In this document: positions 8,749-33,836 of the stretch, piece by piece | How positions within the stretch are numbered: position 1 is the first letter of the stretch | How the letters are laid out: the number at the start of each line of letters is the position of its first letter | Source: Candidatus Saccharimonadota bacterium | GTDB taxonomy: Bacteria; Patescibacteriota; Saccharimonadia; Saccharimonadales; Saccharimonadaceae | Direction: 5' to 3' | DNA: 43,453 nucleotides | Assembly: GCA_013333845.2 (NCBI GenBank) | Contig: JABCNZ020000010.1 | Location: forward strand, 1 to 43,453 | The notes under the pieces: model-generated | Database searches by the model: none | What the model was told of the DNA's origin: nothing | Seen by the model: only the letters and a program-made list of their open reading frames with translations | Translations under genes and position numbers: made by a program

Positions 8749-9427
8749 ATGATGATTTCCCTGTTTGATATACTAGCGCCCCACTACTGTTGTTCTTGCG
8801 GTGAAATCGGCAGAATTATTTGTGACAATTGTAAAAATAACATCATCTTGCGAGCCTCGCGGCGGTGCTTGCTGTGCACAAAAACTATTCGTAATTCTAG
8901 CGGTTTATGCCGTCGCTGCCAGCCGAGAGCGCCTTTTGAAAATGCTTGGTATGTTGGCGAACGAAGCGGCGCTTTGAAGCTGTTGATTGGTGCTTATAAA
9001 TTCGAACGAGTTGGCGGCGCTTATCGCGAGATTGTTGATTTGCTAGATGTGCGCGTATCAGAATTACCTGTCGAGACAATTGTGGTGCCAGTGCCGACGA
9101 TTGCGTCGCATGTTCGCCAGCGCGGTTTCGATCACGCAGCGAGGTTAGCCAAGGAGTTTGCTCGACGCCGAAAGCTCCCCTGCCGCATGATACTGCATCG
9201 GCGAACCTCATCAGTCCAGCATACTGCTGATAAGAGCGAGCGCTGGCAGCAAGCGAAGCAGGCTTTTGTTTGCGACAGCTCAGAGGCCGCTAGCTGTTTA
9301 TTGATTGATTGATGATATTTACACTACTGGAGCGACATTGCATTATGCTGCCAAAGCTCTGCTGGCTAGCGGATTCGAAAAGGTGTCGGTGGCGGTAGTA
9401 GCGCGGCAGCCTACCCAGGGTAGCTAA
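8749..9427 (+). pseudogene. comF: ComF family protein (zinc ribbon + PRTase), frameshifted at a (TTGA)3 repeat
   Basis: CxxC pairs, VPVPT..SHVRQRGFDH. Removing 4 nt at ~9301-9312 restores LLIDDIYTTGATL...VAVVARQ, ending TAA 9425-9427. Confidence 0.85.
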
Positions 9428-11107: not shown

Positions 11108-11235
11108 CGTGTTTTTATACGAGCCTGAATTGGATGGTTCGTGTCTGATGATTGAGAGCGGCTGCCCTGCTGGGCGGGCGCTTTTCGTTTGGCAGACAGT
11201 TGCTATGCTGCTGATGTTTGTGGTTAAATAGAAGT

Positions 11236-11763
11236 ATGACTAATGAGGAATTATCCAATCAGATACAAAAACTGAGTGATATCGTTGCCAGTTTGGCGAA
11301 AACGATGAACGAACGGTTTGAGCAGATCGACAGACGCTTTGCTCAGATTGATAAGCGCTTTGAGCAGATAGACAAGCGCTTTGAAAGAATTGATAGGCGC
11401 TTTACTCAAATAGACAAGAGGTTTGAGCAAATCGATGAACGCTTCGAAAAAAACGACGAGCAGTTTGCACAGATCGACGAACGTTTCAACAGTATTGATG
11501 AACAGCTCGCCGATATTCGCAACGACCATAAAACGTTGGTTGATATCGTGAAAGATATGGATTTGCGAATGGATAAGGGTTTCAATGAGCTAAAAGCTGA
11601 AGACGGCAAAATTCATGCCTAGATTGCTAGTCTGCGACTTGAACTTTACCACGAATCTGGCAGCCGCGAGCTGGTGGACGATACTTTGTATGGTTCGTTA
11701 GACAAGCGCTTGCGCCGACTAGAGGCAAAGTTTCCTGATTTGGCGTCGAGCCAAGCGGTGTGA
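11236..11763 (+). CDS. Heptad-repeat coiled-coil protein (RFEQID repeats) with in-frame TAG at 11620-11622
   Basis: About 8 heptad repeats; the frame continues after the TAG as [10 protein letters not shown]...[20 protein letters not shown] to TGA 11761-11763. Confidence 0.7.
11305..11505 (+). repeat. Degenerate 21-bp coding tandem repeat
   Basis: Encodes [35 protein letters not shown]... units. Confidence 0.8.
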
Positions 11764-28510: not shown

Positions 28511-30919
28511 AGGGCAGATATTACAGTTGTGAAACGCGACGGCAGCCAGCAGCCGTTTGATGCTAACAAAATTAATTTAACTCTGCTGGCAGCTAGCGAA
28601 GGCTTGCCAGACCAAATTACGAAGGTAGCGCAAATAGCGGCCGAATTGCAGTTGACGCTGTTTGATGGCATTACTACCGAGCAGCTTGATGAAGCGCTTA
28701 TTCAGACTGCAGTCCAAAATGTCAAAGACGACCCGGATTTCGATACGATTGCGGCGCGGCTGCTGCTGCGAACTATCTACCGGCAAGTGCTCGGCGATTA
28801 TACTAACAAAACTGAGCTTAAAAAGCTGCATGCGCAAAAGTTTCCCATCTATATTCGCCAAGCCGCTAAAGAGGGTTTACTAGATAAGCGAATGGCTGAT
28901 TCGCAGCTATTTAACCTCAAAAAGCTGGCGGCGGCGCTTGATCCGAGCAAGGATTCGCTCAGCAAGTATCTCGGCGTAGTTACCAACCGCAATCGTTACG
29001 CGCTGCGGCGTCAAAGCGGCGATCCGATCGAGGTGCCGCAGTTCACTAACATGCGTATTGCTATGGGTTTGAGTTTTAACGAAGTCAATCCGACCGAGGC
29101 GGCGATAAAATTTTACCGCCACATGGCTAATCTGGAGTACAGTCCGGGCGGCAGCACGCGGGTTAACGCTGGCGGTTCGTTTCCGCAGCTAAGCAACTGT
29201 TTTGTCATGGAGGTTCAAGACGATATGGCTTCGATAGCCAAAAGTATTCGCGATACCATGTTCATCGCTAAAGGTACTGGCGGTATCGGCATTAGTATGA
29301 ATAAGCTGCGCGCCGCCGGCAGTCCTGTTAAAACCACCAATACCGAGTCAACTGGTCCGATTCCATTTATGAAAATGATTGATACGGCGCTGTTTGCGGT
29401 GTCGCGCAAGGGCAAGAAAGCGGGTGCGGCGGCAGCATATATGGAGAATTGGCACCTTAATTTTTCGCAATTCCTCGATTTGCGCCAGAATTCGGGCGAT
29501 CCGTATTTGCGGACGCGATTTCTAGATACGGCGGTGTTTATTTCGGATGAGTTTATGAAGCGCGTCCAAGGCGGGCAGGACTGGTATTTGTTTGATCCGG
29601 CTGAAGTCGGCGACTTAAACGAACTATACGGCGAAGCGTTTAGCCGCCGCTACCAAGAATACATCAAGCTAGCAGAAGCCGGCAAAATTAACCGCTTCGA
29701 AGTCGTGCCAGCCCGCCAACAATTCCGCCAGATTCTCAGTAGTCTGCAAGCGACTGGACACCCTTGGCTAACCTGGAAGGATACCATCAATTTGCGGGCG
29801 CTCAACAATAACACCGGGACAATCCATCTCAGTAATTTGTGCACCGAAATAACTTTGCCCGAAGACGAAAATAATATTGCGACCTGTAATCTGGTTAGTA
29901 TGAATTTGTCAGCTTTTCTCAATGCTGATAAGACTTGGGATTGGGATCGTTTGGCGGTATCAGTGCGCTCCGCCACGCGCCAGTTGGATAACTTGATTGA
30001 TATCACGAACACGCCAGTTACCGAAGCTATGCATAGTAATGAGCATAATCGAGCGCTCGGGCTCGGCTATATGGGCCTATCGGACGTTTTGGAGAAGCTA
30101 GAGATTAGTTATGAAAGCGAGGCTGCCTACGATCTGGTTGACCAGCTAACTGAATTTATCAGCTACCATGCCATTGATGAATCAGCCAATCTAGCAGCTG
30201 AGCGCGGCAGCTATCCGAACTTTGCTGGCAGCGGCTGGAGCAAGGGCCTACTGCCTATCGATACTGTTGATAAACTTACAACAGAGCGCGGCGTTAAGGT
30301 AAAAATTGATAGTAAATTGCGCCTGGATTGGGAAGTGCTGCGCCAAAAAGTCAAAAAAGGCATGCGTAACGCAACTTTGATGGCGATCGCACCGACAGCT
30401 AATATCTCGCATGTGGCGGGTACGACGCCAGGACTTGACCCGCAGTTTAGCCAAATCTTTAGCCGCAGTACGCTCAACGGCAAATTCCTAGAGGTTAATG
30501 CTAATTTGGTGCGTAAACTCAAACAACTTAATCTGTTGTAATCTCTCAAAGACGACTTGTTGGCGAATCAGGGCGATATTCAAGGTTTCGAGCAAATTCC
30601 GCAAGCAGTCCGCGACGTCTACAAAACTAGTTTTCAGCTGAGCCCGTACGCCTTTATTGAGGTGGCAGCGCGAGCGCAAAAATGGGTCGACCAAGCAATT
30701 AGCCGCAATATGTACCTGGAGTCGCGCGATATTGATGAATATATCGAAATCTATTCAGAAGCGTGGCGCCGTGGTTTGAAAACGACATATTATCTGCATG
30801 TCAAACCGCGCCACCAATCCGAGCAAACCACTGTCACATCGCAATCAGTGCAGAAAGTTCGTACCGACAGCGCTAAAAGGGTAAGCGGTTTTGGCTTTGC
30901 TCGGCGCAAACAATCATAA
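28511..30919 (+). CDS. nrdA: Ribonucleoside-diphosphate reductase alpha subunit with ATP cone; in-frame TAA at 30539-30541; no C-terminal CxxC
   Basis: VVKRDG ATP cone, QLSNCFV, SNLCTEI, ATCNL, AIAPTA, DQAISRN, LKTTYYL. ORFs 28529..30541 and 30557..30919 share a frame. The expected start at 28511 reads AGG; the GTG at 28529 is the alternative. Confidence 0.9.
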
Positions 30920-30952
30920 ACGTTGCTAAAATCACAATAATAAGGAGGAAAT

Positions 30953-31951
30953 ATGACGCAAACAACACAACCGCAAGGTATTTTGGGATCAGGCCTGCGC
31001 GACGGCTTGCAACTCAAGCCAGTACGCTACCAATGGGCAATGGATTTGTATAATCAGGCAGTTGCTAACACTTGGTTTCCGAATGAAGTACAGCTAGTGC
31101 AAGATCTGGCGGCGTTCGAGAAGCTGACCGACGACGAAAAACACGCGTTGAAGACGGTAATCAGTTATCTGAACCCAAACGAATTACTTATCAATAAGTC
31201 GTTAGCTTTTGGTATCTATCCGTACGTCAATGCCGCCGAGGCGCACTTATATCTGTCGAAGCAGATGTGGGAAGAAGCTAACCACTTTATGACCTTTGAA
31301 TACATTATCGAAACGTTTCCGTTTGATCGCCAAGAAATTTACGCGGCAGGCTACGGCAAGAAAAGCCTAAAAGACAAGTCTGATTTCCAAACCAAGTATG
31401 TCGGCCGCATGTTGAATGATAAGCTGGATGTTACTACTACCGAGGGTAAAAAAGATTTTGTGCGCAATCTGGTAGCTTATAATATTGTGCTCGAAGGTAT
31501 TTGGTTTTATAGCGGTTTTATGGTTGGCATGAGTTTTCGCCGGCGTAATTTGCTGCGTAATGTTGGCAGTTTGCTAGATTGGATTACTAAGGATGAAAAT
31601 CTACATTTAACTTTCGGCATTAACTTGCTGTTGACAATTCTTGACGAGAATCCAGATTTGCAGACGCAAGAATTCGCCGACGAGATTCGCGATCTGATTT
31701 TGCAGGCGGTAGCGCTTGAAGAGGCTTATAACAAAGACATGCTACCAAAGGGTATCTTGGGCTTGAATGCGGATTATGTGAACCAGTATGTCAAGTTCAT
31801 GACTGACCGCCGCCTAGAAGAATTAGGCTTCGAGAAAGAATACAATGTAGCTAATCCAGCCAAGTGGATGGCGGCGGCCAACGATACGCTTGAATTGGTT
31901 AATTTCTTTGAAAGCACCAATACTAATTATGAAGTTAACACCGTAAAGTAG
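30953..31951 (+). CDS. nrdB: Ribonucleotide reductase beta subunit with class Ic (R2c)-like residues
   Basis: NPNELL (Glu ligand), EEANHFMTF (Phe at the radical-Tyr site), LEGIWFYSGF, DENLH, NFFE...NY; AAGGAGG RBS. Confidence 0.93.
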   Translation: MTQTTQPQGILGSGLRDGLQLKPVRYQWAMDLYNQAVANTWFPNEVQLVQDLAAFEKLTDDEKHALKTVISYLNPNELLINKSLAFGIYPYVNAAEAHLYLSKQMWEEANHFMTFEYIIETFPFDRQEIYAAGYGKKSLKDKSDFQTKYVGRMLNDKLDVTTTEGKKDFVRNLVAYNIVLEGIWFYSGFMVGMSFRRRNLLRNVGSLLDWITKDENLHLTFGINLLLTILDENPDLQTQEFADEIRDLILQAVALEEAYNKDMLPKGILGLNADYVNQYVKFMTDRRLEELGFEKEYNVANPAKWMAAANDTLELVNFFESTNTNYEVNTVK

Positions 31952-31963
31952 CAGTTTTAGCAA

Positions 31964-31991
31964 TTGAATAAGCGGCTTATTAGCCTATAAT
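31964..31991 (+). promoter_or_regulatory. Sigma70-type promoter of the small ORF after nrdB
   Basis: TTGAAT-16 nt-TATAAT, then AAAGGGGG RBS. Confidence 0.6.
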
Positions 31992-32014
31992 GAATATAAG
32001 CAAAGGGGGAAATA

Positions 32015-32188
32015 ATGAATCCATCAGCGATAATTAACGACGACATGACGCTTGAGGAAAAACTCGAGGCGATTGAACGCGAGATAGCCAAAGCGCAAGC
32101 TGAAGCCGATCAAAAAGCTGAAGCTGACGGCCTACCATCAGCGCCAATTGATCCGGCAACACTAACTATGTGCGAGGGTCGCCAATAG
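32015..32188 (+). CDS. 57-aa protein resembling a free-standing NrdA C-terminal redox tail
   Basis: MNPSAIINDDMTLEEKLEAIEREIAKAQAEADQKAEADGLPSAPIDPATLTMCEGRQ; RBS and promoter present; missed by the ORF track (<60 aa). Confidence 0.8.
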   Translation: MNPSAIINDDMTLEEKLEAIEREIAKAQAEADQKAEADGLPSAPIDPATLTMCEGRQ

Positions 32189-32237: not shown

Positions 32238-33836
32238 ATGAAAGAGCAATCATACATGGGCAAACAGACAAAATATATCTTCGTAACTGGCGGCGTTCTC
32301 TCGGGGGTAGGAAAGGGAATTACCGCTGCGAGCATCGGCGCGGTTCTCCAGGCCAAGGGTATCAAAGTCTCAATTCAGAAATGCGACCCGTATCTCAATG
32401 TGGATGCAGGTTTGCTTAATCCGGCAGAGCACGGCGAATGCTTCGTGACGCGCGACGGTGCCGAGACCGACCTTGACCTCGGCCATTACGAGCGGTTTCT
32501 AGATATAGAGTTGACGCAGAAAAACGCTACGCTGGCGGGACGCTTATTGTCAGAGCTGATTGCCGATGAACGCGCCGGTAAATTTCACGGCAAAACTGTC
32601 CAACTAATCCCGCACTTAACGCATGCCATTCAAGAGTCAATCATTGCGGCTGGCGAAGGCAGCGATGTGCACATCGTAGAAATCGGCGGTACAGTGGGCG
32701 ACTACGAGGGGTTAAGCTTCATCGAGGCGATTCGCGAATTTGCTCACAAAATTGGTAAGGAACGCTGTTTATACGCGCATGTGGTTTATGTGCCGTTTAT
32801 TGATACCAGTAAGGAATTCAAGAGCAAGCCGGCGCAAAATGCCTTAAACGATTTGCGCGGTTTCGGTATCGTGCCAGAGATTGTGGTTGTCCGCAGCGAC
32901 GAGCCAGCGCCTGAGTCAGTTGCTCAAAAAATTGCTTTGTACGGTGGTGTTGACTTGCCGGGAGTGCTGATGCTGCCAAATCTCGATACCGTATTTATGA
33001 TTCCCGAGCGGATAGCCGCTAGCCCATTGATGACCATTCTCGATAAGTTCACTGGTAATTTTGCTCAGCCGAATCTCGCGAAATGGCAAGCGTTAACTCA
33101 ATTGCAAAGCAAAAAGCCAACTGATATCGTGACTGTCGGTTTAGTTGCTAAGTATATGGAAAACAAGGATACTTATCTGTCGGTGACCGAGGCGCTCAAG
33201 AGTGCGACTTGGCACGAGAATGTTGGTCTGCACATCAAGTGGCTCAATGCCGAAACAGTTACCGAGCGCGATTTCGAGACGGTTGATGCTCTGCTGGTGC
33301 CAGGCGGCTTTGGTCCGCGCGGGATTGAGGGCAAGATTGCGGCGGCGCAGTATGCGCTTGAGCGCGACGTGCCGTATTTGGGGATTTGCTTAGGTTTGCA
33401 GACAGCGGTAATTGCGGCGGCGCGGCGAGCCGGGCTCGACGATGCTAACAGCACGGAGTTTGACGATGCTACGACGCATGATGTGGTGTATATTATGCCT
33501 GGCCAAGAGGGCAAAGAATCGACTGGCGGTACGTTGCGGCTGGGCAATTATCCGGCAGTATTCACGCCAGGGTCGCTTGCTTCCAAAGTATATCAGTCGG
33601 ATCATACCGAGGAGCGCCACCGCCACCGATATGAGGTGAATCAGCAATTTCTAGATGAGATTGCCCGCGGTGGCGTGGCGGTGTCGGGCTTATCGCCAGA
33701 CGGGAGGCTAGTCGAATTTGTCGAGGCGCCAAATTGCCGCTATTTTGTCGCAACGCAAGCGCACCCCGAGTTTCGTTCGCGGCCAATGCGGCCGCATCCA
33801 CTGTTTGCTGGACTGATTAGAGCGGCTGTCTCTTGA
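32238..33836 (+). CDS. pyrG: CTP synthase
   Basis: KYIFVTGGVLSGVGKG, ETDLDLGHYERF, GICLGLQ, RHRHRYE, QAHPEF. Confidence 0.97.
   Translation: MKEQSYMGKQTKYIFVTGGVLSGVGKGITAASIGAVLQAKGIKVSIQKCDPYLNVDAGLLNPAEHGECFVTRDGAETDLDLGHYERFLDIELTQKNATLAGRLLSELIADERAGKFHGKTVQLIPHLTHAIQESIIAAGEGSDVHIVEIGGTVGDYEGLSFIEAIREFAHKIGKERCLYAHVVYVPFIDTSKEFKSKPAQNALNDLRGFGIVPEIVVVRSDEPAPESVAQKIALYGGVDLPGVLMLPNLDTVFMIPERIAASPLMTILDKFTGNFAQPNLAKWQALTQLQSKKPTDIVTVGLVAKYMENKDTYLSVTEALKSATWHENVGLHIKWLNAETVTERDFETVDALLVPGGFGPRGIEGKIAAAQYALERDVPYLGICLGLQTAVIAAARRAGLDDANSTEFDDATTHDVVYIMPGQEGKESTGGTLRLGNYPAVFTPGSLASKVYQSDHTEERHRHRYEVNQQFLDEIARGGVAVSGLSPDGRLVEFVEAPNCRYFVATQAHPEFRSRPMRPHPLFAGLIRAAVS

Follow-up and report, generated by a model that had tools for sequence, protein, structure and literature searches.

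A putative detached redox tail of class I ribonucleotide reductase encoded as a free-standing 57-residue protein in Saccharimonadaceae

In ribonucleotide reductases (RNRs), attached C-terminal tails reduce the active-site disulfide and are recharged by redoxins, as stated in excerpts of the published work (PMC11903788, PMC5704485, PMC4078304). Here, we describe a locus in which such a tail appears to be encoded by a gene of its own, a 57-amino-acid (57-aa) open reading frame (ORF) next to the class I genes nrdA and nrdB at positions 28511-32188 of the window, as we call the whole analysed stretch of 43,453 nucleotides (nt) from contig JABCNZ020000010.1 (GCA_013333845.2) of a Candidatus Saccharimonadota bacterium belonging to the Saccharimonadaceae. 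The CX2C tail of yeast Rnr1 reportedly acts in trans between the two subunits of the R1 dimer. The two cases are alike in that a tail can reduce the active site of another polypeptide, but the yeast tail is still part of the R1 polypeptide, whereas here it is a free protein. In the canonical class I NrdA/NrdE tail, exemplified by C695/C698 of Bacillus subtilis in the consulted part of PMC11903788, Cys-x-x-Cys ends a disordered segment, and it likewise does so here. In contrast to the canonical tail, the segment described here is unattached, has a start codon to itself, which in most copies examined follows a stretch resembling a ribosome-binding site (RBS), and begins with an N-terminal helix absent from fused tails.

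As a precedent, NrdJa/NrdJb of Pseudomonas aeruginosa, a split class II RNR, comes closest; excerpts of PMC4520616 and PMC5704485 describe this split enzyme of a free-living organism as unique and state that the separate NrdJb "mediates efficient reductive dithiol exchange". In both systems the C-terminal redox module of the catalytic subunit resides on a separate, adjacent gene, although the precedent is a class II enzyme and the present one belongs to class I. NrdJb is a cysteine-rich zinc-finger domain, spanning 150-220 residues with six Cys in the fused NrdJ according to part of PMC5704485; the protein described here has 57 residues, two Cys and a new helix, and is further set apart by having no Pfam or NCBIfam match and by a structural model with a single helix followed by an extended tail. 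Another rearrangement of the RNR electron-supply chain within an nrd operon is the glutaredoxin fused to NrdB in Facklamia ignava (from an excerpt of PMC6187632), but it goes in the opposite direction: there a reductant was fused to the enzyme, and here a part of the enzyme was freed. A full-text search of the literature available without subscription brought up no description of a split class I tail and no paper on a Saccharibacteria RNR bearing on such a split.

A Cys-free NrdA and its small neighbour

The interval carries three genes on the forward strand: nrdA, nrdB and the 57-aa ORF (Table 1). NrdA contains the Pfam domains ATP-cone (PF03477), Ribonuc_red_lgN (PF00317) and Ribonuc_red_lgC (PF02867), and NrdB contains Ribonuc_red_sm and scores 349 bits against NCBIfam NF007186 (cut-off 237). 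The intact 802-aa NrdA of a relative reached 1262.6 bits against NCBIfam NF005101 (cut-off 988), covering positions 3-790 of 822 and leaving the last 32 profile positions unmatched. The original prediction described an NrdA with its active-site residues in place and a C-terminus free of Cys, and both halves of this description hold. SNC, NLCTE, TCNL and TTYY are present in the window NrdA, and C230, C444, C459 and Y760/Y761 are invariant across 21 NrdAs; the segment that follows TTYYL, HVKPRHQSEQ...GFGFARRKQS, contains zero Cys. Tails without Cys were also found in all 20 genus relatives, in the 8 tail-less NrdAs of the phylum draw described below and in 77/77 NrdA tails of the named genome loci. 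The window lineage thus has the domains and catalytic residues of a class I NrdA but lacks the C-terminal redox Cys pair on the same polypeptide.

The translation of the small ORF is MNPSAIINDDMTLEEKLEAIEREIAKAQAEADQKAEADGLPSAPIDPATLTMCEGRQ. Its homologues were collected in four sets of loci: 20 genus relatives, 5 other NrdA-bearing genomes of the order, 80 named loci (the best 80 of 336 genome matches) and 33 phage loci. Among the small proteins considered, 150 of 151 candidates matched the 57-aa ORF at E<=0.01, and a profile search of 1.84 billion representatives retrieved 139 clusters (clustered at 50% identity), of which 69 reach E<=1e-10. Nearly all of these clusters are 33-144 aa long, the four long matches being partial matches in multiple stretches. 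The terminal pair C-x-x-C-[Q/E], which had been anticipated to be conserved, closes the peptide in every locus of the four sets (20/20, 5/5, 80/80 and 33/33); apart from the window copy, the only homologues examined that lack it are two metagenome fragments, which are frame-shifted or truncated.

Two conserved modules are kept across 97 distinct cellular and phage sequences, and K16, I20, C53 and C56 are invariant across 44 diverse cluster representatives. The protein starts with M-(T/S)-L-E-E-K-L-x-A-I, continues with a helix at residues 13-38 and ends with A-P-x-D-P-x-x-x-x-C-x-G-C-Q. AlphaFold2, run on the family alignment, modelled this single helix followed by an extended end with no strands (mean pLDDT 80), in line with the helical segment originally proposed. 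The median dN/dS was 0.16 (37 pairs with usable dS out of 105). On these sequence comparisons the small ORF is evidently a real gene under purifying selection. A purine-rich stretch of the GGGGG/GGAGG types lies just 5' of the ATG in most copies displayed. The ORF had been credited with its own promoter and RBS; of these, the AAGGGGG lying 5 nt before the ATG stands, whereas the promoter is a consensus match only, and promoter-like sites are not enriched in the region (4 found versus 6.8 expected from shuffles).

No Pfam family matched the 57-aa ORF, including PF00085 and PF00462, and no NCBIfam family matched a homologue differing at two residues that was scanned for it. The hallmark of thioredoxin, glutaredoxin and NrdH, a thioredoxin fold in which C-x-x-C stands at the N-terminus of a helix, is absent from the protein, which has no match to these families and is modelled as one long helix without strands. 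The ESM Atlas returned only "hypothetical protein" clusters of the same peptide family. In some cellular copies (L035, L037-L040 and L051), the conserved helix is preceded at the N-terminus by 20 additional residues rich in Thr and Gln, bringing these copies to 76-79 aa. We also considered a RiPP precursor and rejected it: no maturation enzymes are found nearby in the window or in the scanned loci, conservation extends over the full length, and the end of the peptide shares homology with NrdA tails.

The peptide gene adjoins nrdA or nrdB on the same strand in 20/20 genus relatives, 5/5 order genomes and 79/80 named loci, the exception starting 38 bases from a contig end, so that 104 of the 105 cellular loci show the linkage. 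The synteny with nrdAB that had been foreseen therefore holds for cellular genomes, but not for phages, in which all 33 copies are unlinked to nrd genes. Among the 80 named loci, the order nrdA-nrdB-pep was found 43 times and nrdA-pep-nrdB 32 times, and the linkage must therefore have survived a rearrangement. One locus with the typical order nrdA-pep-nrdB-pyrG (L188) comes from a record titled as a Verrucomicrobiia metagenome-assembled genome, a label that is probably a binning error.

Presence of the peptide is complementary to presence of a fused tail. In a draw of 401 genomes from the phylum, the 30 loci that best matched the C-terminal region of NrdA were classified by their tails: 8 were tail-less and 22 tailed, all 22 ending C-x-x-C-[Q/E]. 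A strong free-standing peptide (E<=2.6e-20) occurs in exactly the 8 genomes with a tail-less NrdA and in none of the 22 with a tailed one, as expected if the peptide accompanies tail-less NrdA. Within the family, the peptide accompanies NrdA in 8 of 8 genomes and is missing from the 4 that lack this NrdA, apart from one weak partial match (E 0.008) in an 1809-aa frame.

Since the window does hold point lesions, one might suspect that the split is an artefact of assembly or gene calling and that NrdA is really one tailed protein. This is extremely improbable: the split recurs in 105 independently assembled cellular loci, every peptide copy has its own ATG and most of those displayed have the purine-rich stretch upstream, the length of spacer separating nrdA from the peptide gene differs among cellular loci, and the order nrdA-nrdB-pep, with nrdB between the two in 43 of 80 loci, already refutes it. 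Translational read-through from nrdA into the peptide gene was likewise ruled out where nrdB intervenes (43/80 loci).

Relation of the small protein to fused NrdA tails

The three closest tailed NrdAs, which come from other Patescibacteria (L060-L062), share 54-60% identity over the C-terminal region. They run past ...KKGFG... into a long low-complexity linker and then into PVDPQE..C(E/D)SCQ, with the C-termini ...PVDPQEKFLCESCQ, ...PVDPQERLQCDSCQ and ...PVDPQERLNCESCQ. The tail-less NrdAs stop at ...GFGFAKK.., where the linker begins in the tailed relatives, and the free peptides end ...AP(I/L/V)DP(A/Q)D..(M/F)C(E/D)(G/S)CQ. Peptides and fused tails thus have P-x-D-P-x-(D/E)-x-x-x-C-x-x-C-Q in common. 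Positions 32-54, 34-54 and 35-54 of the peptide profile (A3) matched the three C-termini with E-values of 1.6e-5, 8.5e-5 and 1.1e-4, and all three matches lie within the frames that encode NrdA. For the N-terminal motif M-(T/S)-L-E-E-K-L-x-A-I, nothing comparable was detected in the fused linkers.

The motif G-F-G-F-A-(K/R) closes nearly all split NrdAs seen (window 30887-30901), and weaker forms of it (KKGFG, KRGFA and RKGFGGF) stand where the linkers of the tailed L060-L062 begin. The motif may serve as a contact site.

A quick maximum-likelihood tree was built from 39 NrdA barrels, comprising 30 phylum-draw loci and 9 chosen loci, none of which was dropped. In this tree a single branch (SH-aLRT 83) sets the 17 split NrdAs apart from the rest; they are nested among the tailed ones, beside two of the three closest tailed NrdAs, and one change of state therefore suffices. 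In basal split lineages the genes are arranged nrdA-pep-nrdB, as a fission in place would be expected to leave them. Because the peptide profile matches the C-termini of tailed NrdAs, the ORF is identified as the tail of a class I NrdA, evidently freed by gene fission and fitted with an added N-terminal helix. The fission appears to have taken place in the ancestor of the NrdA clade of Saccharimonadaceae and a few other Saccharimonadales. The idea put forward in the original prediction, that the tail was split off into a free-standing protein, is thereby borne out by the match to the nearest tailed C-termini and by the complementarity with tail-less NrdA.

Phage copies and a possible function in trans

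The peptide is also found in viruses. On 33 IMG/VR contigs (L199-L231) we found homologues with 42-62% identity, all ending C-x-G-C-[Q/E]. In none of the 33 phage loci was nrdA or nrdB found near the peptide gene in the fetched flanks of up to 6 kb. Ribonuc_red_lgC was absent from 10 of 10 phage records, of which 8 are rated 100% complete and 6 have terminal repeats, and neither Ribonuc_red_sm nor NRDD was detected in the 5 phage records searched for each. Phage genes surround the peptide gene, among them YqaJ, Rad52/RecT, RusA, NinG, endonuclease VII, a holin and an amidase endolysin, with a pair of polynucleotide kinase and RNA ligase near the peptide gene in several loci. A gene of the glutaredoxin family lies directly downstream on the same strand in 11/33 loci, and in four loci the phage redoxin exceeds the NCBIfam cut-off for NrdH (88.8 versus 85.75 bits). 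It displays the motifs CVQC and WSGFRP, which we take to be NrdH hallmarks. A DUF6378 gene adjoins the peptide gene in 11/33 loci, and in one locus a gene resembling a dATP/dGTP diphosphohydrolase is adjacent instead. DUF6378, the tail peptide and a glutaredoxin/NrdH-like gene form a recurrent mini-module in these phages.

Phages encode thioredoxins, glutaredoxins and NrdH as components of the RNR reducing chain. The phages described here differ in that they carry the tail itself, accompanied by the glutaredoxin/NrdH-like gene in one third of the loci and by no RNR in the 10 records. When the DNA of one 12-kb phage locus was compared with 151 genomes of the family, matches were found in 25, and in 22 of these 25 they were confined to the peptide gene (67-89% identity). 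This pattern points to phages having captured the peptide gene from such hosts. A prophage origin of the cellular copies was considered and discarded on the same limited match. The phage copies indicate a free-standing and apparently transferable protein paired with classic RNR reductants, and the pairing with NrdH/glutaredoxin genes points to the same RNR function. Phages carrying the tail gene alone, often with NrdH/glutaredoxin, would fit a diffusible component serving a host-encoded NrdA.

In five relatives, NrdA is single-copy. NrdD was found in two of the five, so that two single-contig genomes, both 99% complete, showed no RNR other than the tail-less NrdAB. Thioredoxin is encoded in 5/5 of these relatives and a glutaredoxin-family gene over the cut-off in 4/5, neither being linked to nrd. 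In one relative (G022:C1:574531-574773, within L032), a weaker second thioredoxin-family ORF (38.5 bits) is placed on the opposite strand between nrdB and pyrG, which is not seen in the arrangement of the window.

We consider it probable that the small protein is a freed NrdA tail, produced by gene fission, which does the job of the tail in trans. The dithiol of the peptide would reduce the NrdA active-site disulfide, formed by the Cys residues of SNC and TCNL, after each turnover, and the peptide itself would be re-reduced by thioredoxin or by a redoxin of the glutaredoxin/NrdH type. The conserved N-terminal amphipathic helix might replace the lost covalent tether, probably by docking on NrdA; we infer both this docking and the re-reduction of NrdA in trans. 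A more far-reaching version, towards which we lean only slightly, is that the 57-aa protein is an obligatory third subunit of the class I RNR, working as a helix-docked diffusible shuttle, and that the phage copies drive the host RNR during infection without any phage RNR gene.

Several observations weigh against this interpretation. The original prediction had named homologues unlinked to nrd genes as a finding that would count against it, and to the letter this is the situation in all 33 phage loci, so that the protein might have a different partner from NrdA. The region homologous to the tail spans about 20 residues, and the E-values in individual genomes range from 1e-4 to 1e-5. No NrdA-fused form came up at E<=0.001 when the profile was run against the whole library, a word-based search among longer proteins for fused relatives gave 0/138 candidates at E<=1, and a search of the peptide profile against sequences of solved structures produced only chance coiled-coil matches (E>=0.64) and no NrdA tail. 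The branch of the split NrdAs, with its SH-aLRT of 83, comes from a quick tree that includes one very long row (L067). The role assigned to the N-terminal helix is pure inference. Finally, the window copy itself is without the second Cys and stands beside a broken nrdA.

One alternative that these observations bring up is that the peptide descends from the NrdA tail but is now a small protein that works through its dithiol or binds metal and has a different or less restricted partner, for example a mini-redoxin substrate of NrdH/glutaredoxin, an RNR regulator or a helper for the NrdB cofactor, while NrdA is re-reduced in another way. Phage copies among recombination and nucleotide-handling genes, without any RNR gene in the 10 records, would suit such a protein, as would an N-terminal helix that has no counterpart in fused tails and leaves only positions 32-54 of the profile to match them. 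We nevertheless regard it as unlikely, given the strict linkage to nrdAB in cellular genomes (104/105 loci), the perfect complementarity with tail-less NrdA, the conservation of the exact terminal motif of NrdA tails, and the classic RNR reductants encoded next to the phage copies. Still less credible is a direct reduction of the tail-less NrdA by thioredoxin, glutaredoxin or a small thiol, which would make the peptide a dispensable remnant of the fission. Tail-truncated RNRs do function with small dithiols such as dithiothreitol (DTT) in vitro, the case in the consulted part of PMC5704485 being a class II enzyme, but a dN/dS of 0.16, invariant Cys residues and a conserved new N-terminal motif over 139 clusters are unexpected of a remnant, which phages would not acquire and keep either. 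The interpretation as a detached redox tail acting on NrdA is supported as far as sequence analysis goes.

The copy in the window and implications for the family

The window's own copy of the system is damaged. Lesions were judged against the two nearest genomes compared, at about 94% DNA identity. The original prediction needs correction in that nrdA is not intact: its start position (28511-28513) reads AGG, where relatives have ATG, and TGG-GAA (W-E) of the relatives became TTG-TAA, giving W670L (30536-30538) and an in-frame TAA at 30539-30541, the position of E671 in relatives. The gene appears in the ORF list as two in-frame pieces (28529-30541 and 30557-30919). Recoding of this TAA was dismissed, since relatives have TGG-GAA there and TAA terminates other genes of the window. 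In the peptide, whose C-terminal end in the window is ...PIDPATLTMCEGRQ, Cys56 is replaced by Arg; the resulting ending CEGRQ is unique among the homologues examined, and Arg at position 56 was found in 0/138 cellular and phage copies collected from loci. The window copy therefore lacks C-x-x-C at its extreme C-terminus; because the homologues all end C-x-x-C-[Q/E], the family as such has the terminal Cys pair and only the window copy departs from it. That the CGC codon stands in the place of TGC or TGT had been suspected from the outset, and the Cys read by relatives at position 56, together with the universal terminal pair in the loci, upholds this suspicion.

Two unrelated genes of the window are also broken relative to the nearest genome: a gene for a coiled-coil protein (11218-11622) has GAG>TAG at 11620, and a 4-nt TGAT insertion near 9310 (9300-9315) shifts the frame of a gene at 8749-9312, which has a weak, sub-threshold match to a double zinc ribbon. 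Because of this damage elsewhere, the lesions are read as a general sequence error; taken over nrdA, the peptide gene and the two unrelated genes, they suggest such an error or possibly a decaying lineage. The lesions of nrdA and the peptide gene are thus either mis-sequencing or a recent inactivation. The codon differences to relatives amount to 110-111 synonymous and 17-18 non-synonymous in nrdA, and 46-63 synonymous and 0-1 non-synonymous in nrdB; by these counts, the rest of the nrd operon is under strong purifying selection.

If the lesions were real, the class I RNR of this strain would be a recent set of pseudogenes and the organism would rely on a class III RNR, a reading confined to the window. 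The clustering of four damaging changes in nrdA and the peptide gene speaks for it, as do the presence of NrdD in the nearest genome (G001) and, in another relative with NrdD (G020), a fragmented nrdA. We find it possible but rather doubtful because all 63 codon differences between nrdB and its counterpart in G028 are synonymous (0 non-synonymous), because the premature stop at 11620 and the insertion near 9310 look like general sequence error, and because all 27 of the 80 named loci with the exact NrdA tail ending of the window read CEGCQ. In the single-contig relative G020 (L026, G020:C1:44800-55500), nrdA extends over three frames, being either a pseudogene or affected by frameshift errors, and the peptide gene is intact.

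Table 1. Coordinates of annotated features in the window
Feature	Position	Strand	Basis
nrdA, alpha subunit of the class I RNR (single ATP-cone, Cys-free tail), damaged	28511-30919	+	Pfam, ORFs, relatives
NrdA C-terminal tail after the TTYY pair, LHVKPRHQSEQ...GFGFARRKQS	30788-30919	+	comparison with relatives
nrdB, class I RNR beta subunit, intact	30953-31951	+	Ribonuc_red_sm; NF007186
Promoter-like site TTGAAT-16-TATAAT	31964-31991	+	consensus match only, 10/12 positions
Shine-Dalgarno-like AAGGGGG, 5 nt 5' of ATG	32003-32009	+	sequence
Putative 57-aa detached-tail protein	32015-32188	+	ORF, homologues, profile, model
Codon 56 of the small ORF, CGC (Arg); TGC or TGT (Cys) in relatives	32180-32182	+	
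Small ORFs with PF18895	5530-5898, 6634-7032, 7058-7438, 7558-8007, 9577-10017		

The nrd genes are followed by a CTP synthase gene (32238-33836) and preceded by a pair of ABC transporter genes on the opposite strand. Elsewhere in the window, between 5530 and 10017, five small ORFs carry the type IV secretion system pilin domain PF18895.

If the proposed function is true, the system would be the first natural three-component class I RNR and the phage copies a new kind of phage auxiliary gene. Studies of the class I RNR tail on its way from thioredoxin to the active site and back are hampered by its disorder and by the large dynamic complex; with a natural, separate tail of 57 residues, titration, labelling, mutation and trapping of the re-reduction half-cycle would become possible apart from the catalytic subunit. 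A "hypothetical protein" family of about 140 clusters would receive a name and a testable function. The finding also suggests that phages can boost the deoxynucleotide (dNTP) synthesis of their hosts with a 170-bp gene, and it would explain how an NrdA whose tail is free of Cys can be used by a widespread set of Saccharibacteria, in some of which no RNR other than NrdAB was found.

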